From Haliangiales bacterium (GTDB lineage: Bacteria > Myxococcota_A > Polyangia > Haliangiales > Haliangiaceae), in the NCBI GenBank assembly GCA_041916575.1, contig JAYRZI010000002.1:149117-213116 (forward strand): DNA of 64,000 nucleotides, in the 5' to 3' direction. Below, one piece after another: positions 6,286-51,552 of this stretch. Under the pieces are notes generated by a model. The model saw nothing but the letters and a program-made list of their open reading frames with translations. It had not been told where the DNA came from and did not search any database. Both the position numbers and the translations under genes were made by a program. Positions within the stretch are counted from its first letter, which is position 1, and each line of letters opens with the position of its first letter.

Positions 6286-6932
6286 TGCGGCGCCTGCGGA
6301 CGGTAGCGCTCCTCCGGGATGGTGGCCAGCGTCGAGTGGGCCACCGGTGCCGTCAAGCCGAAGAGCTCCTGGAAGCTCATGATGAGAGGCCGCCAGCGCC
6401 GCGGATCGATCTGGTGCCGTTTGTCGTGGCGCAGCAGGCTCTCTTCGACGTGCACCGCGACGATCTCGACCTCGAGCGCCAAGAGGCGGCCGGCGGTCGC
6501 CGGATCGTGCTGGCGCAGCGGCAGCTCGCCGCGCAGCTTGGCCTCGAGCTGCACTGGGCACTCGGCCAGGCGCGGCGGCTCCACCTTCGTGGACGCCAGG
6601 GCCGTGAGCCCGGCGCGGCCGAGCTTGTCGGCCACGTGCACGTAGCCCATCGCTTGCTTGTGCGGTGGCACCGGCGACGAGCCGGTGGTCTTGGCCAGCG
6701 CGTCGACCTGCGCCGCTTGCTCGACCGAAGGCAGGTTGAGCACGCACTCGCCGGTGCGCAGCAGGTTCTGCGGGGTCTGCGAGCGCGCGCCGAAGCCCAG
6801 CACGCACGACCAGCCTAGCCACCACGCCGAGGACATCGGCGCCACGTTGGGCGTGCCGTCGGGGTTCATGGAGCTGACCAGCACCACCGGCGTGCCGAAG
6901 TACAAGATCGCGGGGGCGATGGTTTTGTGCAT
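6282..6932 (-). CDS. flavin reductase-like (FMN-binding split barrel) protein
   Basis: GTPVVLVSS...PNVAPMSSAWWLG resembles the flavin reductase-like family; stop overlaps the ada start (ATGA coupling). Confidence 0.65.
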   Translation of the reverse strand: MHKTIAPAILYFGTPVVLVSSMNPDGTPNVAPMSSAWWLGWSCVLGFGARSQTPQNLLRTGECVLNLPSVEQAAQVDALAKTTGSSPVPPHKQAMGYVHVADKLGRAGLTALASTKVEPPRLAECPVQLEAKLRGELPLRQHDPATAGRLLALEVEIVAVHVEESLLRHDKRHQIDPRRWRPLIMSFQELFGLTAPVAHSTLATIPEERYRPQAPQ

Positions 6933-7011
6933 GCGTCCACCCTAGAGGGAGCCGGCGAGCGCCGCGATCTGGTTTGGCTCATCGCAGCCGGCCGCCGCCA
7001 TCCGGTACCTC

Positions 7012-7713
7012 TTGCGGCGCGGGCGCAGGCGCGGCATTTTCTCGAACGTGAGCTTGCACGCGCCCGAGACCTTCTCTTTCGCGCAGCGCAGCGCGCCGCT
7101 ATCGCCTTCGCCGGCGCTCGTGCACCTGCTCGCCGAGGCCTATGCCGAGCCGCCTCGCGGCTATCATCACCTGGGGCATATCGACGAGGTGCTCGGCTGG
7201 TACGACTGGGCCGGGGCGCAGGTGCCGTGGCGGCAGCCGCGCGAGGTCTTCGTGGCCACGCTGTTCCATGACGCGGTGTACGTGCCCGGGGCCAGGGACA
7301 ATGAGGCCAAGAGCGCGGCGCTGGCCGAGGAGGTCCTGGCCGGGCGGGCCGCGTGCGGCGTGCTCGAGGAGCTGCGCGGCATCGATGCGGCGAGGGTGGC
7401 CGAGCTCATCGCGCTGACCGCGCGCCACGGCCAGCTCGCCGTCGACGAGGTAGATGATGAGGCGGCGCGCTTCCTCGATTGCGACCTGGCGATCTTGGCC
7501 GCCGAGCCGGCGCGCTATCGGCGCTACACGCAAGAGATCGCCGGCGAGTACCGCGCGCTGCCGGCCGAGGCGTATCGTCAGGGCAGGCGTGCATTTGTCA
7601 CCAGCCTCGCAGCACGTCCGCGGCTGTTTCTGAGCGAGCTGTTTCACGGCGCGCTCGATGCGCGGGCGCGAGAGAACCTGGCCGCCGAGCTCGCCGAACG
7701 CGCCGCGCCGTGA
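7012..7713 (+). CDS. HD-domain metal-dependent phosphohydrolase (COG4339-like)
   Basis: YHHLGHIDEV ... ATLFHDAVY gives the H..H...D / HD pattern; the ORF starts on TTG at 7012, and the true start may be GTG at 7048. Confidence 0.5.
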   Translation: MRRGRRRGIFSNVSLHAPETFSFAQRSAPLSPSPALVHLLAEAYAEPPRGYHHLGHIDEVLGWYDWAGAQVPWRQPREVFVATLFHDAVYVPGARDNEAKSAALAEEVLAGRAACGVLEELRGIDAARVAELIALTARHGQLAVDEVDDEAARFLDCDLAILAAEPARYRRYTQEIAGEYRALPAEAYRQGRRAFVTSLAARPRLFLSELFHGALDARARENLAAELAERAAP

Positions 7714-7715
7714 CC

Positions 7716-7738
7716 GGCTGTGGCCTCGCCCACAGCCC
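7716..7738 (+). terminator. putative stem-loop (ggctgtgg-N7-ccacagcc) after the HD-domain gene
   Basis: 7-bp inverted repeat immediately 3' of the stop at 7713; no U-tract. Confidence 0.25.
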
Positions 7739-7791
7739 GCGATGAGGGTTGCGGCGCGGTGCTGGAGCTAGGCTAAGCTTCTGGCTCCATC

Positions 7792-9240
7792 ATGCTGCCC
7801 TTCGTCGCTGCTGCCATCGCCTGTATCAGCCCGCTCGCCTACGGCGCGGTGCCCAATGACGGCAAGCCCGACCAGGCCGCGCTGGCCAAGGCGCTGGCCG
7901 AGGCGCACGCCAAGCGCGCCGCCGTGTGCTTGCCCGCCGGGGTGTTCGAGCTGGGCCGAACCGACGACCGCGCCAGCTTGGTGATCGACCGCGGCCCCGT
8001 CACCTTGCGCGGCGCTGGCGCCGCCACCGTGTTGCGGATGACCGGCGATGGCCGCAAGGGCGACTGGCGCGGCCTCGAGCTGCGCGGCGGGGCTCGCGAC
8101 GTGGTGATCGAAGAGCTCACCATCGACTCGCTCGGCACCTTCAACACCGAGGAGCAGACGCATCTCATCCAGCTCTCTCCCGGCGTGCGCAAGGTGGTCC
8201 TGCGCAAGGTGCATCTGGGCCCGATGCGGCGCCCCGAGCAGAAGCTCGGCGAGGGCAGCGGCGGCGACTGCGTGCGGCTGATCGGCGAGCGCGATCGCAT
8301 GATCGAAGACGTGGTCATCCGCGACACCGCCTTCGTCGATTGCGATCGCTCGGGCGTGAGCCTGCAGCGCGGGCTGCGCCGGATCTCCATCACGCGCTCG
8401 AGCTTTCGCGGCACCGGCGACGCGGCGGTGGACTTCGAGCCGACAGCGCCCGGGCCCATCGAGCGGGTCACCCTCAGCGAGCTGGACATCGAGCAGGCCG
8501 CGGGCTCGCAGGCTTCCTGGGCCATGACCATCGGCGGCCACGGCGAGAGCGTGGCCACCGGGGTCAACGTGACCGATTGCAAGCTGCGCGGCGGAGGCAT
8601 CGGCCTGCTCAACGTCGGCGAGGTGTTGGTTTCCGGCAACGAGATCACGCACGGCTCGAGCGCCGTAGCCACCATCGCGCTGCGCCGACGCGCCGGCCTG
8701 GTGCGCCTGGAGGGTAACGTGATCGTCCGCCCAGCGGAGGCGCCACCGGGAGCCTTGATCGAGGCCCAACACAACAACGGCCTCACGCCGACCGCGCTGA
8801 GGATCTCCGGAAACCACCTTCGCCAGGAGACCGCCGCGCCGCTGGTCTCGACCACCTCGCTGGCGGAGCTAGAGGTGTCGAAGAACCTGCTCGAGTACCT
8901 GGCTAAGGACACGCGGCAGTTCATCATCGATACCCACGCGGTGGCCGCCGATGCAGGCAAGATCCGCGTGCTCGACAACACGATCCGCGGCGCCACGGCG
9001 GCGGCGGCGCTGCGTCTCGACGCTCGCAAGCGCGCGGTCTCGGGCGTCGAGCTGCGCGGCAACGTGGCCGAGTCGCTGGGAGAGTCGGTGGCGTGCGAGA
9101 TGCAACAAGGCGGGCGCATCTCGGAAGTGGCGACCAGCGACAACGTCCTGGGCACCACGCGCTCGCGCTGCATGCTGGCGCCGCAGGCCGATCCCACGCG
9201 CACGGCTCCTCCGCCGGCGGCGAGCGCGGACCCGCGCTGA
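7792..9240 (+). CDS. secreted right-handed parallel beta-helix (pectate-lyase-fold) repeat protein
   Basis: Signal peptide MLPFVAAAIACISPLAYG; repetitive G/N/T-rich turns characteristic of the beta-helix; ATG at 7792. Confidence 0.6.
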   Translation: MLPFVAAAIACISPLAYGAVPNDGKPDQAALAKALAEAHAKRAAVCLPAGVFELGRTDDRASLVIDRGPVTLRGAGAATVLRMTGDGRKGDWRGLELRGGARDVVIEELTIDSLGTFNTEEQTHLIQLSPGVRKVVLRKVHLGPMRRPEQKLGEGSGGDCVRLIGERDRMIEDVVIRDTAFVDCDRSGVSLQRGLRRISITRSSFRGTGDAAVDFEPTAPGPIERVTLSELDIEQAAGSQASWAMTIGGHGESVATGVNVTDCKLRGGGIGLLNVGEVLVSGNEITHGSSAVATIALRRRAGLVRLEGNVIVRPAEAPPGALIEAQHNNGLTPTALRISGNHLRQETAAPLVSTTSLAELEVSKNLLEYLAKDTRQFIIDTHAVAADAGKIRVLDNTIRGATAAAALRLDARKRAVSGVELRGNVAESLGESVACEMQQGGRISEVATSDNVLGTTRSRCMLAPQADPTRTAPPPAASADPR

Positions 9241-33921: not shown

Positions 33922-34005
33922 GTTTCTGGTTCATCGGGAACCAGGAAGGCGGGCGGCGTCCGGGGCGCGTACGAGGTTTCGAGGGACTGCGAGCGCGTGA
34001 GCCGC

Positions 34006-34021
34006 TGGCACGTGCCTCGCA
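34006..34021 (+). promoter_or_regulatory. sigma-54 (-24/-12) promoter TGGCACgtgccTCGCA upstream of rtcB
   Basis: GG-N10-GC spacing and TGGCAC/TTGCA-like elements; divergent from rtcR. Confidence 0.55.
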
Positions 34022-44401: not shown

Positions 44402-45102
44402 GGCGCCTGCTCGGGGATGACGTAGGAAGTGAGCGCCTCCGCTTGTTCTCCCTCTTCCTTGATCTTGCCGATGCCGGGTGCGAACCAGTAGCGCTTGTCC
44501 GCCGCTCCCGAGGTGGTCTTTCGCAGCTTGAGGCACGTGAACGTGCCGGCCGGCACCGTCACCGTCTCGGCGGTCGATTCGACGATCCAGGTCTCCGTCT
44601 TGGAGACGGTCTTGGTCCCGGTGACCGGATCGACCTCGACCTCGGTGTAGTCCGTGGACCATTGCGCGCCAAGCGCCAGGTGCGGCGCGGTCTCGTCAAT
44701 GCGCAGCTTGCCGGGCACATAGAACTGGTCGTTCTCCAGCACCCCCGCGGCATCGAAGGACTGCTCGCGGTGGCGCACGATGGAGGTGCACAGATCTTGC
44801 TGCCAGCTCACGACGTGGCCGGCTGTCTTCTCGGTGCGGATGCGGAAGGCGGTGATGCCTTGCTTGCGATCGCCCACGTCCTCGATGGCCTCGACCTTGG
44901 TGGCCTTGCGGACGGTCGGGCCGCCGCGGTCGCTGGTGTCATAGACCCACTCGGCGCCCACGATGAGGGGCAGATGTCGGGTCGAGAGCGCGGCGTCACA
45001 CTCCGCTGTGATCGGGGGGGAGGCGCTGGGATCGTCGTCGCAGGCGGAGAGCACGAGCGAGCAGGTGGCGACGGCGGCGAGGAGCCAGTTACGAGGCGGC
45101 AT
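44398..45102 (-). CDS. lipoprotein, unknown function
   Basis: MPPRNWLLAAVATCSLVLSAC lipobox; ATGA overlap downstream. Confidence 0.5.
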   Translation of the reverse strand: MPPRNWLLAAVATCSLVLSACDDDPSASPPITAECDAALSTRHLPLIVGAEWVYDTSDRGGPTVRKATKVEAIEDVGDRKQGITAFRIRTEKTAGHVVSWQQDLCTSIVRHREQSFDAAGVLENDQFYVPGKLRIDETAPHLALGAQWSTDYTEVEVDPVTGTKTVSKTETWIVESTAETVTVPAGTFTCLKLRKTTSGAADKRYWFAPGIGKIKEEGEQAEALTSYVIPEQAP

Positions 45103-45763
45103 GGGTGCTCTCCTTTGGCGGGGGGGACGTGGTGGTGTTCGAGGTCGCGCTGGCGCTGCGATGCTGCACCGTGATCTCTGCGGCATCCCGTAGAAAGTCG
45201 ATGCGGTGGACCTGCACGCGCAACACGTCGAGGCCGGTGCGCTGCGCCAGGTCCTGAAACAAGGCCTCTTGTTGGTTTGGATGCAGCAGCGCGAGGTTGT
45301 CGTAGAGCATGGGGGTGGAGCCATGGCGGCGGGCACGGGAAGGGAGCTCGAGTAGCGCCGAGCCGAAGACGATCACCAAGTTCACGAGCAAGAGCTCGGC
45401 GGTGCTGACCTTCTTGTTGGCGACGCCGTTGATGATGCCTAGCCCGATCAAGATGAACAGGTAGGTCAGATCGCGCATGCGGATCTCTTCCGTACGGTAG
45501 CGCAGGATGCCGAACACCGCGAAGAGCCCCAGCGCGAAGCCCAGCTCCATCGGGACCTTGCGCAACAGCAGACACATCGAGAACGTGATGACGTTGAACA
45601 CGTAATACGTGAACACGAACTCGCGATTGCGATAGATCCGGTAGTAGACGAAGAGGATCACCGCGGTGGCGAACACCAGGTTCATGCCGAGTCGCGACAT
45701 CAACCGGACAAAGTCGCCAACGTCGATGAAACTATCGGTGCCAAAGATGTCGTCCTGAGTCAC
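45089..45763 (-). CDS. DUF4956 family membrane protein
   Basis: TM-rich region (LGMNLVFATAVILFVYYRIY, ITFSMCLLL, FILIGLGIING); GTG start at 45763 overlapping the VTC gene stop (GTGA). Confidence 0.6.
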   Translation of the reverse strand: MTQDDIFGTDSFIDVGDFVRLMSRLGMNLVFATAVILFVYYRIYRNREFVFTYYVFNVITFSMCLLLRKVPMELGFALGLFAVFGILRYRTEEIRMRDLTYLFILIGLGIINGVANKKVSTAELLLVNLVIVFGSALLELPSRARRHGSTPMLYDNLALLHPNQQEALFQDLAQRTGLDVLRVQVHRIDFLRDAAEITVQHRSASATSNTTTSPPPKESTHAAS

Positions 45764-46458
45764 TGGATCATCCTCTCGATCGCGCGGACATCGCCGAGCA
45801 GGCGATTTTGCCGGAGCTCGGGGTGTAGCAGGGCGGTCGCGAACGTGTATTTGCTCATCGAGCGCTCGTGCAGGCGGCAGGTGTGGATCCGCCGCATGAT
45901 GGGGGTCCGCACGCAAAACGGCGATTGCTTGACCTCGATGACGGCCACCTTGCCGAACGACAGCTCGGCGCCGCCCGGCTCGTGCGCGCGCAGTCCCACA
46001 TCCACAGTGACGCGCTCGGCGCTGCCCAAGCTGACCAAGCTCAGTCGAGCGAAGTTCACTCGCAGCGTCGGCTGCAGCGTGTCGATGGCAAGCGCAGCAT
46101 GATGCCGCAGAAATGCCAGCTCGGGTTCACCGAGCACCTCGCTACCGAACTCCAGTGCCAGGCGCTGCTTGTCGGTGAGGACCTCGTTTCGCTTGGTCTT
46201 GACCTCGAGGAACGTCAGGTGGCGATCCGGATAGTGGCGGATCCGGATCTTCTGCCTGAGCCGGCGGCCGCGTCGGTGATCGTGGAAGCAGCGGCGGTCG
46301 GGTGTGTCGAAGTACAGGCTATGATAGATGGCAAAGTGGCCTTGGCCGGCGGGGAGCGCTGCGTAGTCTTCGCACAAGGGCTCCAGAATCTCGTGAAGTA
46401 GCTCACTGCTGCAGGTGTATTTGCTGTCGATTCGCCGCTGTAGCTCTCGCTCGCGCAT
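45760..46458 (-). CDS. VTC-domain (CYTH-like, polyphosphate-polymerase-domain) protein
   Basis: RIDSKY...HSLYFDT...FLEVKTK typical of the bacterial VTC domain; classic pairing with DUF4956; ATG at 46458. Confidence 0.65.
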   Translation of the reverse strand: MRERELQRRIDSKYTCSSELLHEILEPLCEDYAALPAGQGHFAIYHSLYFDTPDRRCFHDHRRGRRLRQKIRIRHYPDRHLTFLEVKTKRNEVLTDKQRLALEFGSEVLGEPELAFLRHHAALAIDTLQPTLRVNFARLSLVSLGSAERVTVDVGLRAHEPGGAELSFGKVAVIEVKQSPFCVRTPIMRRIHTCRLHERSMSKYTFATALLHPELRQNRLLGDVRAIERMIQ

Positions 46459-48411: not shown

Positions 48412-49806
48412 CTAGCCCGAGGCGGCCAGCTTCTGACGCAGCGCTCGCGCCGCGGCCAGCGAGGGATCGAACGTGAGCGCTTGCTGCAGGTGCCACTGTG
48501 CGGAGGCTCGATCCCCATCGGCCGCGCACAAGAGCGCGAGCGCCAGCAGCGCGCGTGGCCACGGGCGGGCGCCGAGCAGGAGGTCTTCCACGAACGCACG
48601 CTCGCGACGGAGCAGCTCGCCGCGCTGGTTGCCGGCGAGGTCTCCGACGCGAAAGCGCGCCCACGCCAAGGTGGCTTCGTACTCCGGGTGGCCGGGGTGG
48701 TGCCGGCAGGCGCGCGCCAGCTCGCCGATGGCTCGATGCGGCTCGCCAGCGCCGAGCTCGGCTTGACCGCGGGCGAACGCTTCGGCCGCTGCGGTGGCCG
48801 CTGCGGGGTCGATCGCCCAGGTCGATCGCAGCTCGGAGCGGCTGCGCAGCCAATCGTGGTAGCGGCCGCGCGCCGGCATGTCGAGCAGGGTGGCGCGCGC
48901 GCGTTCCACCAGCTCCCATAGCGGCGCCACCGTATCGGCGAGCTCGGCGAGGTCCCAGGCCGCTAGCGAGCTCGGCGCGTAGCGAACCGCTAGCGCTTGC
49001 ACCGCCGCTTCGATCTCTGGCTCTTCGGCGCGTGGGGTGATCTCGAGGACATCATAGAACGTGCTACCGGCCAGGCGCTGCTTGCGGCGCTCGAGGTGGC
49101 GGCGCAGCTCATGCAGCTCGCGACGCGCCGGCGTCTCCGTGTCACGGATGAAAGGGGTCAGGGTCAGCGCGCCGGCGCACGCCAGCGTCCACACCAGCCG
49201 CGCGATACGCGAGGGCGGCAGTGCGCCGAGCTGTACCAGGGTCTGCAGGCTGCGCGTACCATCGCAGGCCTCGGCCACCGCGCGCTCGGGGACGGCGAGC
49301 CCGCGGGCCTCGAGCAGCTCGAGGAGCAGGTCGGTGTCCGTGACGTAGTGCTGGCTCAGGTTGGCCAGCGCCACCCGCGCCAGCTCGATGGGCGCGTCGC
49401 GTGCACTGGCGATCGCCACGGCGATCGCGTCCACCGTCGGCACGGTGGTCGGCAGCTCGAGCGCGCCACAAAGCATGGGCCAGGACAGCTCGCCAGCGAA
49501 GCGCAGGCGATAGGCTTCTCGGACGGCAGCGAGCAACGTCGCCTCGGAGGCCTTGCCGGCGAGCAAGGTAATCCGCGCCTTGGGCGCGTGAACGCGCGCC
49601 TGCTCGCCATCGCCGATCGCCACGAGCCCTGGTCTCTCGTCCGTCTGTCGCCACGCCTGCGCGACCTCGGGCAAGCGCGCTCCAAGGTGGTCTCCATCGA
49701 GCAGGATCACGGCGGCGCCGTGCGGCTCGGCGCTGGGGCCATCGGCGAGCGCGGGGACCCAACGCGCCTGGGCGCCGGCCCGCGTCAGCGTGTTCTCCAG
49801 CGACAT
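48412..49806 (-). CDS. J-domain (DnaJ-like) protein with C-terminal TPR-like region
   Basis: YDVLEITPRAEEPEIEAAVQALAVRYAP J-domain-like; start trimmed to ATG 49806. Confidence 0.5.
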   Translation of the reverse strand: MSLENTLTRAGAQARWVPALADGPSAEPHGAAVILLDGDHLGARLPEVAQAWRQTDERPGLVAIGDGEQARVHAPKARITLLAGKASEATLLAAVREAYRLRFAGELSWPMLCGALELPTTVPTVDAIAVAIASARDAPIELARVALANLSQHYVTDTDLLLELLEARGLAVPERAVAEACDGTRSLQTLVQLGALPPSRIARLVWTLACAGALTLTPFIRDTETPARRELHELRRHLERRKQRLAGSTFYDVLEITPRAEEPEIEAAVQALAVRYAPSSLAAWDLAELADTVAPLWELVERARATLLDMPARGRYHDWLRSRSELRSTWAIDPAAATAAAEAFARGQAELGAGEPHRAIGELARACRHHPGHPEYEATLAWARFRVGDLAGNQRGELLRRERAFVEDLLLGARPWPRALLALALLCAADGDRASAQWHLQQALTFDPSLAAARALRQKLAASG

Positions 49807-50753
49807 GCCCGCTCCCACCGTGGGCACGGCGATGATGATCGATGGCACGAGGCAGTGTAGCAAGCGCACGCGAACTAGCACTACTGCGTCAGTGCAACGT
49901 CGAGCGAGACCAAGCGGCGGGAGGCAAGTCGCGGCGCACGCCCGGAGCGCAGCGACGAGTGTGGCGGTTCCACACGAGGAGCGAGCACCGGACGTACGTC
50001 GCGAGGTGCCCGCGCCGCGACGGTCGCAGCCGATGGTGGACTGACGCAGTAGTGCCAACCCGCGCGCGCTCGAGCCTCGGCGAGGTCAGAGGCTCTCTGC
50101 GGTGGTTGGCCGACTAGAAGGGTGGTTTCGATGAGGACTAGCAGTGAGCGAACGCAGGAGCCCAATGGTCGAGTCGAGATCTCGAATTCTCACTCTGGAG
50201 CGAGTCGAGAATGTCGCTCTGTTGGTAGGCCATCATCCGGTGAGATCCTCGACGGAAGCTCGACGGTTCCTCGTCGGCGAGCCCTGCCCAGGGCGCCGCG
50301 GCAAGAGATCGTCGGATCAAGGCCTCGAAAGCGAAGCATTCGCAAAAAAAATGAGATCGCTTCGCAGCTCGGCCGACGATGTCTGGTGATGCGCGAAAAC
50401 TCCCATGATACCGCTCGGCTCGAGTGCCGGATAGGTGATGTAACCGATTAGATCTGCTCGATATTTATTTGTAAGGCGTCGACATCACGAGATCCAGAAG
50501 GCACTGGGCGTTACGCCAGAGCATTACGAGAAACTCGGGCCGTCGCATGGCGGATCGCGAAGCTGAAATTCATGCGATGTGGAACACTGAGATGGGGCGC
50601 TGAAGGCCGACACTCCCCATTTTTGCATTGGGCTGCGTCTCTGAAATCGCGAGTACAGCGCCGCTGCATTTCCGTATGAGCGCTTTTGGGTTTCTTGCCA
50701 ATTGACTAAAATGCGTTGACACCTTCCGAAGTCTCCCGTAGCGTCGGACCCAC

Positions 50754-51485
50754 ATGTTGCACACCTCGTCGGCGGCGAGCTCCGCACAACCGAGCACAAA
50801 CCAGAAGTTCGAACTTCCGTTTGTCGTGCGTCAGCCGCTCAATCACTACGAGCTGCAGCAGATCGCCACGCTTCGCTCGCAGGCTTATGGCAGGCACAAT
50901 GTGCAGCTCGGCGAGATGCTGACCTTGCCTGAGGATGCCGATATGCAGCCGGGCAATGTGGTGCTCGGCGCCTTCGACAAGGCCAGCAACTCCCTGCTGG
51001 GTACGCTGCGGATTCATACCAACCAGTACGGTCCGCTTCCACTGGAAGAGTCGGTCGACCTGCCGGCCCACATGCGTGACCAGCGGCTATGTGAGGTCAC
51101 CCGCCTGGCGATCCGGTATGATGCGCCGTCGCTGGTCAAGCTCGCGCTGTTTAAGACCTGCTACCAGACGGGCATTCGCCACTCCCTGGATGCCATCACT
51201 GCGGTAGGCCGCGATCCGATTTATCGGCAGTATGAGAACCTCTTGTTTCAAGAGGTGTTTCCCGGTCGTGGCTTCATGCCCATCCGGCACGTCGCCAACT
51301 TGCCGCACAAGGTGCTGTTTCTCGACCTGGCGAGCGCTCAGGAGCGCTGGGCCCGCGCCAAGCACCCGCTGCTCTCGTTCATGGTCACGATTCGCTACGA
51401 TGACATCGAGACGCCAGCGCACTTCAATCACGGCCCGGTGCTGGCCGCTGGCAGTGGCACGTTCCCTGTACGAATGGCCAAGTAG
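50754..51485 (+). CDS. LuxI/FeeM-like GNAT-fold N-acyltransferase (candidate autoinducer / N-acyl-amino-acid synthase)
   Basis: Pattern LRSQAY (cf. LasI LRAQVF), TLRIHT (cf. WRILDT), CEVTRLAI (cf. ELSRFAI), ITAVGRD (cf. TVTTVG); GC ~60% versus ~70% flanks; TTGACA-N17-TAGCGT promoter-like element just upstream. Confidence 0.45.
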   Translation: MLHTSSAASSAQPSTNQKFELPFVVRQPLNHYELQQIATLRSQAYGRHNVQLGEMLTLPEDADMQPGNVVLGAFDKASNSLLGTLRIHTNQYGPLPLEESVDLPAHMRDQRLCEVTRLAIRYDAPSLVKLALFKTCYQTGIRHSLDAITAVGRDPIYRQYENLLFQEVFPGRGFMPIRHVANLPHKVLFLDLASAQERWARAKHPLLSFMVTIRYDDIETPAHFNHGPVLAAGSGTFPVRMAK

Positions 51486-51552
51486 GCCAACGTAGGCCAA
51501 GGTAGATAGTCGTGACGCAATGCGCCCCAACGGGCGCATTTTTCATTTTCGG

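Follow-up and report, generated by a model that had tools for sequence, protein, structure and literature searches.

The 64,000-nucleotide stretch analysed here (hereafter the window) comes from a Haliangiales bacterium (contig JAYRZI010000002.1, positions 149,117 to 213,116) and carries, at 50754..51485 of the forward strand, an open reading frame (ORF) with an ATG start that encodes a protein of 243 amino acids. [quoted passage not shown] Our results support a FeeM-type and not a LuxI-type protein, and the FeeM label replaces an AHL synthase label that was tempting but wrong. The explanation that we favour as a whole, with a probability of about 0.7, is that the gene encodes a FeeM-type N-acyl amino acid synthase, that it is a functional and resident solo copy and that its product is most likely a lipid signal.

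Protein family, active site and receptor linkage

The window protein matches the Pfam family FeeM (PF21926) with 42.7 bits for a gathering cutoff of 27, residues 37-168 being aligned to profile positions 2-138 of 158, and no other credible family was found. The best hit among hidden Markov models is not a generic GNAT acetyltransferase, which, together with a missing autoinducer-synthase signature, was the outcome that the sequence-only reading had named as speaking against it. Searches against NCBIfam, including the TIGR03694 model proposed there as a check, gave no match at E<=10, and the OlsB-type models, PF13444 and NF052554 were not matched either. A search of PDB sequences with the single window protein returned no match, scans of species-representative genomes found no relatives and a word-indexed search gave six homologues only; an exhaustive profile search retrieved 754 clusters with the limit set to E<=1e-3, of which 213 reach E<=1e-30, and the matches are mostly full-length. 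Judged by these profiles, the window protein belongs to an uncharacterised FeeM sub-family comprising the 754 clusters. Among 98 aligned members 80 also match Pfam FeeM, and the named members, which are from Limnobacter, Burkholderiaceae and Gammaproteobacteria, are all annotated as 'hypothetical' or 'FeeM domain-containing'. Within the 64-kb window the sub-family is present as a single copy, which is the ORF at 50754..51485 (family profile, E 4e-82).

An AlphaFold2 model of the protein was obtained from an alignment of 58 sequences and shows a pLDDT of 89.5 and a pTM of 0.84, with residues 20-222 above 95. In this model a GNAT/FeeM fold spans residues 21-222, residues 1-20 and 223-243 being predicted as disordered. 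In the structure comparison FeeM is the clear top match, as it stands 4 Z units over all generic GNATs with a near full-length alignment, and Foldseek agrees, while the AHL synthases score no better than the generic GNATs. When the sub-family profile was compared with PDB sequences, FeeM was found marginally (E = 1.1) and no AHL synthase appeared at E<=10. Designed Kelch-repeat proteins were matched by the same profile and were discarded as repeat artefacts.

For FeeM the catalytic base has been proposed to be Glu95, and Nas354 loses its activity when the corresponding residue is exchanged (E103A; PMC4897644). In the weak alignment of FeeM with the sub-family profile (E 1.1) the Glu95 segment 'KKLAEVVQFA' pairs with the family motif 'aeatRLa', which places it on E114 of the window motif C-E114-V-T-R117-L-A, where E114 is conserved in 89% and R117 in 99% of the sub-family. 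Glu114 is the putative catalytic residue of the window protein. The conserved family residues kept in this protein are R41, Y45, D63, R86, E98, E114, R117, K134, Y160 and H185. The coenzyme A (CoA) P-loop after strand beta4, read by eye, is R-Y-D-A-P-S instead of Q/R-x-x-G-x-G/A, and degenerate P-loops have been described in GNATs that depend on a carrier protein, FeeM and SbzI among them (PMC11685415). The sub-family differs from FeeM in having E-x-x-R where FeeM has E-x-x-Q, and in additional conserved C-terminal residues, namely H185, W199, H204 and a near-invariant H-P-D-I motif (H 94%, P 80%, D 91%). The latter reads Y-D-D-I (residues 215-218, 51396-51407) in the window protein and its close relatives, which are encoded on Kofleriaceae-like metagenomic contigs (L001-L006, L013 and L014) and were compared mainly across four lineages. 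Moreover, FeeM has a dedicated adjacent acyl carrier protein (ACP), FeeL, whereas the window gene has none.

Of wider interest is the genomic setting of the sub-family. At 21 of 28 loci the synthase gene adjoins an orthologous gene for a 7TMR-DISM(+PAS)-GGDEF-EAL receptor, the two genes being separated by ~70-270 nt or overlapping by 4 nt.

L010 6001-8621; L011 6001-9632; L016-L021; L022-L034: receptor-linked loci, all in relatives and not in the window

The receptor gene is co-directional in Burkholderiales and in L010 and convergent in 13 metagenome loci; the synthase stays next to its receptor despite changed orientation and host. In Limnobacter parvus the synthase gene overlaps the downstream 7TMR-DISM-GGDEF-EAL gene by 4 nt, and on two annotated Paraburkholderia plasmids an 'EAL domain protein' lies directly downstream of the synthase. 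At six loci on Burkholderiaceae plasmids and one from a metagenome, Pfam finds 7TMR-DISM_7TM (+PAS), GGDEF and EAL combined in every downstream ORF, one of these seven receptor ORFs being cut off where its contig ends; GGDEF, EAL-type and DDFGAG motifs are seen in most of the seven. A receptor profile built from them detected a full-length orthologue in each of the 13 further metagenome loci with downstream sequence, at 150-215 nt from the synthase and with E values of 1e-250 to 1e-277 for complete copies.

Seven loci have no such receptor: the window, L013 and L014 (Kofleriaceae), L007, L008, L009 and L012. At the window locus a full-length match to the sub-family is found with no adjacent receptor, none of the six reading frames of the window matches the receptor profile at E<=10, nor is a receptor found in L013 and L014, and the ~57 ORFs spanning the window contain no LuxR, ACP, exosortase, GGDEF or EAL domain. 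The 3' end of the FeeM-like gene in L008 (P0175) is overlapped by a convergent gene for a hybrid histidine kinase (HisKA-HATPase-REC; 6674-8587, minus strand), which may represent an alternative sensor partner.

By analogy with FeeM, the FeeM-like protein would use an acyl thioester, most likely an acyl-ACP of fatty-acid synthesis, as donor of a fatty acyl group and, with Glu114 as general base, would acylate a free amino acid or similar amine on its amino group, yielding a lipid of the N-acyl amino acid type. Since the sub-family normally stands beside a receptor, we infer that this product is most likely a lipid signal and that the window synthase, with no such receptor in the window, is a 'solo' one. 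The proposal of a signal synthase thus gains indirect support from the receptor linkage in the sub-family, the window copy itself being without a receptor.

In the literature that we searched, no report connects 7TMR-DISM receptors with N-acyl amino acid synthases, and this linkage, typical of the sub-family, is not described for FeeM and the Nas enzymes. The nearest report is of an NAS fused to a PilZ domain that binds cyclic di-GMP (c-di-GMP) (PMC4897644). Once correctly labelled, the window feature taken alone is ordinary, being an enzyme of a known kind from an uncharacterised sub-family; it is the module of synthase and 7TMR-DISM-GGDEF-EAL receptor that appears to be undescribed. The ligands of 7TMR-DISM receptors are largely unknown, and a neighbouring lipid-amide synthase offers a concrete and testable ligand hypothesis. 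In Burkholderia, the gene for RpfF, a crotonase-fold synthase of the Burkholderia diffusible signal factor, stands beside the gene for its receptor RpfR, a cytoplasmic PAS-GGDEF-EAL protein. The relatives of the window gene would follow the same logic, with a putative synthase of a fatty-acid-derived signal beside a GGDEF-EAL receptor and a presumed c-di-GMP readout, but their synthase is of GNAT/FeeM type, their receptor is a seven-transmembrane membrane protein and the window locus has no receptor.

The solo synthase in a predatory lineage offers a natural comparison with the receptor-linked members and is a possible case of a signal synthase held by a predator. A bolder extension, which we consider improbable, would have the sub-family make a new class of N-acyl-amine signals sensed by the 7TMR-DISM-GGDEF-EAL receptors, in a circuit resembling quorum sensing with c-di-GMP as the readout. 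The Kofleriaceae ancestor would have captured the synthase alone, and the predator would employ it to manipulate the c-di-GMP state, and with it biofilm or motility, of Burkholderiales-like neighbours. A prey-type signal made by a predator would parallel the proposal for the solo LuxI protein AgpI.

The resident gene and its predicted transcription unit

Gene order on both sides of the FeeM-like gene is common to the window and its relatives, including L013 and L014. The conserved order consists of a VTC gene, a DUF1554 gene, a hypothetical gene, a divergent gene of 464 amino acids, a gap of ~800 nt, the FeeM-like gene, and genes for a 163-residue membrane protein, an M23 peptidase, a 3-hydroxyacyl-CoA dehydrogenase (3HCDH) and FAD oxidases. 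The contigs L001-L006, L013 and L014 carry the gene with an amino acid identity of 92-96%. Among the lineages the FeeM-like protein is 89-96% identical while four-fold degenerate sites are 58-68% identical, and therefore the gene is under strong purifying selection and not a recent insertion. For the L001 homologues, amino acid identity is 92% for the FeeM-like protein and 82% for the divergent neighbour. On this comparative evidence the FeeM-like gene is judged functional and resident.

The ORF was correctly located by the sequence-only reading in a GC trough. Indeed, its locus is the GC minimum of the window at scales of 300, 700 and 1400 bp (z -4.0, -3.9 and -3.3) and the most deviant one in tetranucleotide composition (z 3.4). 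The GC content of the ORF is 0.612, in line with the ~60% first given, compared with 0.70 +/- 0.03-0.04 in the rest of the window. The figure of ~50% for 50060-50750 holds locally, with minima of 0.46 over 100 bp at 50436 and of 0.54 over 300 bp, but not as a mean, which is 0.570. By codon position the ORF has a GC content of 0.64 (GC1), 0.41 (GC2) and 0.78 (GC3). Its GC3, like that of the clade copies (0.78-0.84), and its codon adaptation index of 0.56 (native range 0.54-0.78) lie at the lower margin of what native genes show, still inside that range.

In four clade members the gene has a GC content 6.6-8.8 points below that of its own contig, whereas six sub-family members in other hosts (contig GC 0.50-0.73) deviate from their contigs by only -0.024 to +0.025; hence the GC deficit is not intrinsic to the protein family. 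Sub-family members are also carried by megaplasmids of Paraburkholderia and Caballeronia, among them a conjugative one, and in a neighbour-joining tree the clade and a 55%-identical outgroup (P0002) form their own long branch, which is nested in no named group. The gene was probably acquired long ago from a donor of lower GC content (~55-63%) by an ancestor of the Kofleriaceae-like clade, partly ameliorated and kept under purifying selection since. The claim of horizontal acquisition is thus plausible only as an old event, given the clade-specific GC deficit and the fact that the gene, both its flanks and the low-GC spacer are common to four relatives. What looked like a low-GC 'island' would be an old, selected and well-regulated chromosomal resident.

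The features of the locus are the following:

50754..51485, plus strand: FeeM-family N-acyltransferase gene, 243 amino acids (Pfam FeeM, fold)
50716..50744, plus strand: inferred sigma-70-type promoter, read from the sequence, with -35 TTGACA (50716-50721), a 17-nt spacer and -10 TAGCGT (50739-50744)
50545..50753, no strand: conserved non-coding block 2, presumed promoter and operator (conservation against L014 and L001)
50301..50355, no strand: conserved non-coding block 1, with an invariant A8 tract (50344-50351) after a GCGAA-GCA-TTCGC mini-hairpin
49807..50753, no strand: divergent intergenic gap of 947 nt, upstream gene start at 49806, low-GC part 50060-50753 (GC 0.57)
51519..51550, plus strand: intrinsic terminator of the FeeM-like gene from the terminator scan, hairpin 51519-51540 followed by a T-tract

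Neither of the putative promoter hexamers, TTGACA and TAGCGT, varies across three lineages, the only substitutions nearby (50727, 50729) being in the spacer between them. A consensus promoter scanner did not report this site because TAGCGT agrees with TATAAT at only three of six positions. With the promoter placed at 50716..50744, transcription is predicted to start at ~50751-50752, 2-3 nt before the ATG, and we therefore predict a leaderless or near-leaderless mRNA; no Shine-Dalgarno sequence is found before the ATG at 50754. A sigma-54 promoter was also considered, and no GG-N10-GC arrangement was seen by eye. The surrounding block 2 is 97.1% identical to L014 and 85.6% to L001, compared with 68% and 60% at four-fold sites. 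The stretch 50695-50844 is 100% identical to L014 and shares the first rank in conservation among 150-nt stretches across 11 kb of synteny; other promoter-bearing spacers in the synteny are also conserved at 93-96%, so that conservation of the ORF promoter region is strong and not unique. Downstream, the terminator starts 34 nt past the stop codon and consists of a 9-bp GC-rich stem (AATGCGCCC / GGGCGCATT) followed by TTTTCATTTTC; the stem core GCGCCC/GGGCGC and the T-tract are retained in all four relatives, with variable loop and flanks. Given the conserved promoter region and the gene's own terminator, the FeeM-like gene is therefore predicted to be a self-contained monocistronic transcription unit.

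The sequence-only reading had placed the whole feature at 50060-51485. The ORF end stands; the non-coding part does not, since the divergent gene starts at 49806 and not at 50058, as indicated by its blastp alignment, the gene calls of the relatives and the N-terminus MSLENT, and the gap is therefore 947 nt long. Compared with L014, the window has ~180 nt inserted just upstream of the start of this divergent gene (49880-50058), with a GC content of ~0.68; the blastn alignment breaks between window positions 49879 and 50059, which correspond to a single point in L014. That the low-GC region upstream of the ORF holds no convincing ORF was confirmed. Small protein genes were considered there, as short ORFs look conserved, but these show no third-position substitution bias against L001 and the region is therefore taken as non-coding.

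Block 1, of 55 nt, is 92.7% identical to L001 and 96.4% to L014, compared with 37-52% and 70-87%, respectively, for the intergenic DNA flanking it. Its A8 tract, already noted in the sequence-only reading, lies upstream of the ORF at a distance of ~400 nt, does not vary among three lineages and is the sole A/T run of at least 7 in the 64 kb. Block 1 is possibly a protein-binding or DNA-bending site. The 'several hairpins' reported for the region do exist as four inverted repeats, but these are short and imperfect, with 76-82% complementarity, and RNA folding is no better than for shuffled sequences. Likewise, a structured RNA or riboswitch upstream of the gene was rejected, with no Rfam match at E<=1 and a fold energy on either strand no better than that of shuffles (z +1.5 and +0.6 for block 2).

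A perfect 12-bp palindrome, TCGAGATCTCGA, is present at 50174-50185 in the divergent intergenic region; it is kept in L001, has one mismatch in L014 and may be a regulator-binding site. Two other candidates in the gap were discarded. GAGATC occurs 103 times in the window, and its local count of 6 is barely over that of other bins. A decayed remnant of a receptor or partner gene was sought by tblastn with 11 receptors and 5 neighbour proteins, which gave only noise (E 0.09-0.7, inconsistent positions).

Weighing the reading against its rivals

Several points weigh against the explanation favoured here. The identity to FeeM is only 16-17% and the profile match is marginal (E = 1.1), because of which the equivalence of Glu95 and E114 depends on a weak alignment together with the fold match. 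The sub-family is known from sequences and not from biochemistry, the acceptor substrate and acyl chain are not readable from sequence, and no ACP or other acyl-handling gene adjoins the FeeM-like gene. The linkage sample is biased, as 14 metagenome loci were retrieved via one shared motif and several are near-duplicates. Furthermore, the window copy may have come to play a different role from the receptor-linked members, because its clade (window, L013, L014) lacks the receptor in the searched sequence and has Y-D-D-I in place of H-P-D-I. As for the origin of the gene, the evidence for transfer is suggestive only, because the GC anomaly is mainly in GC1 and GC2 and its GC3 is that of a native neighbour.

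An unlikely alternative, which is nonetheless a serious rival for a solo copy, keeps the same chemistry and assigns it a product other than a signal, such as a biosurfactant that aids predation or movement over surfaces, a lipid with antibiotic action or an aminolipid of the membrane. Myxobacteria live by gliding and predation on surfaces, and the window copy has no receptor partner in the window, both of which would suit such a role. The products characterised for NAS enzymes are surfactants and antibacterials (PMC4897644; PMC7293339). In addition, OlsB-type models are weakly touched by 3 of the 98 sub-family members and PF13444 models by 4, which is a minority, and the N-acyltransferase chemistry is related. 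However, the window protein itself matches neither, and no OlsA-type partner is adjacent, the sole PlsC-type acyltransferase gene (PF01553) lying 12 kb off at 37069-38514. Above all, a tight adjacency to a receptor that is independent of orientation and extends across most of the sub-family is hard to square with a bulk lipid, and we retain the lipid signal as the more probable product.

The LuxI alternative offered by the sequence-only reading would make the protein a solo AHL synthase that combines S-adenosylmethionine with acyl-ACP or acyl-CoA into AHLs disturbing the quorum sensing of prey. There is a precedent in AgpI of Archangium gephyra, a functional solo LuxI which, like the window gene, is a low-GC gene without a cognate receptor in a high-GC myxobacterial genome (57% vs 69% GC; PMC7862692). 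LuxI-type synthases also share with the sub-family the superfold and the core residues R, F/Y, D, R and E-x-x-R, and the window protein carries these at LuxI-like spacing (R41-x3-Y45, D63, R86, E114-x2-R117). Of the motifs quoted in support of this alternative, RSQAY (41), EVTRLAI (114) and TAVG (149) are exact and TLRIHT (84) is one residue shorter than the pattern; they are real, but as parts of the core that the LuxI and FeeM types have in common (R..Y, R, E..R) they cannot tell the two families apart. Moreover, when the eight residues conserved in LuxI-type synthases (R, F, W, D, D, R, E, R) were paired by spacing only, R41, Y45, D63, R86, E114 and R117 found their place while the conserved Trp and the second Asp had no counterpart. 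PF00765, the autoinducer synthase model proposed as a check, gives nothing at E<=10 with the window protein and is touched by a single one of the 98 sub-family members (E 0.006), whereas AgpI is clearly LuxI by sequence. The statement that no luxR gene is nearby proved right, as neither an Autoind_bind nor a GerE domain occurs in the ~57 plausible ORFs spanning the window, LuxR being typical and not obligatory for such synthases. For this sub-family the point matters little, its usual partner being the 7TMR-DISM-GGDEF-EAL receptor, which the window lacks too. With the sub-family profile recovering FeeM and no AHL synthase, and with structural scores to AHL synthases that equal those of unrelated GNATs and lie well under that of FeeM, we regard a LuxI-type enzyme as very improbable.

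Similarly slim are the chances of an NAS associated with exosortase and PEP-CTERM (TIGR03694) and acting in exopolysaccharide-linked protein sorting. TIGR03694 is matched weakly by 14 of the 98 members (best E 5.9e-7), in the distant relative L009 a gene with a PEP-CTERM domain lies at a distance of 4.6 kb, and a link of NAS genes with exosortase systems is attributed to Craig et al. 2011 in PMC7293339. The window protein, however, does not match this model, and no exosortase or PEP-CTERM gene is found among the tested window ORFs or on the contigs of close relatives; the neighbours that define this system and the OlsB-type one, exosortase and OlsA, are respectively absent from the window ORFs tested and from the adjacent genes. 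Least probable of all is a generic GNAT acetyltransferase or a decaying, functionless foreign gene, since the lead of FeeM in the structure comparison and the degenerate CoA P-loop oppose the former, while decay is excluded by strong purifying selection and by the extreme conservation of promoter and terminator in four lineages.

Neighbouring genes and other features of the window

The divergent neighbour (48412-49806, minus strand), of 464 amino acids from its corrected start, has no Pfam match. On the other side of the FeeM-like gene, 53038-56959 holds a gene for a 3-hydroxyacyl-CoA dehydrogenase and, after it, two in tandem for FAD_binding_4/FAD-oxidase_C proteins, in an order kept in L013 and L014. 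This cluster may serve lipid-related metabolism. The best named homologues of the dehydrogenase are from metagenome-assembled genomes of Kofleriaceae, a family of the Haliangiales in the Myxococcota, with 78-84% identity. The Ser/Thr kinases, sigma-54 activator and DUF1554 protein also encoded in the window are consistent with a Kofleriaceae-like host.

Three further observations concern other parts of the window. At 45100-46100, around a VTC-domain gene and its neighbour, the window has its second-lowest GC content (~0.60), and the tetranucleotide composition there ranks third in deviation (z 2.3). The minus strand at 38518-41178 encodes a bacterial homologue of the Major Vault Protein of 887 amino acids, with a Major Vault Protein shoulder domain (PF11978, 82.7 bits) and Vault_3 repeats. 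Finally, at 34001-36009 on the plus strand, a gene for an RtcB RNA ligase (PF01139) is overlapped by the next ORF, which has an RF-1 domain, an arrangement that resembles the rtcB-prfH pairing.

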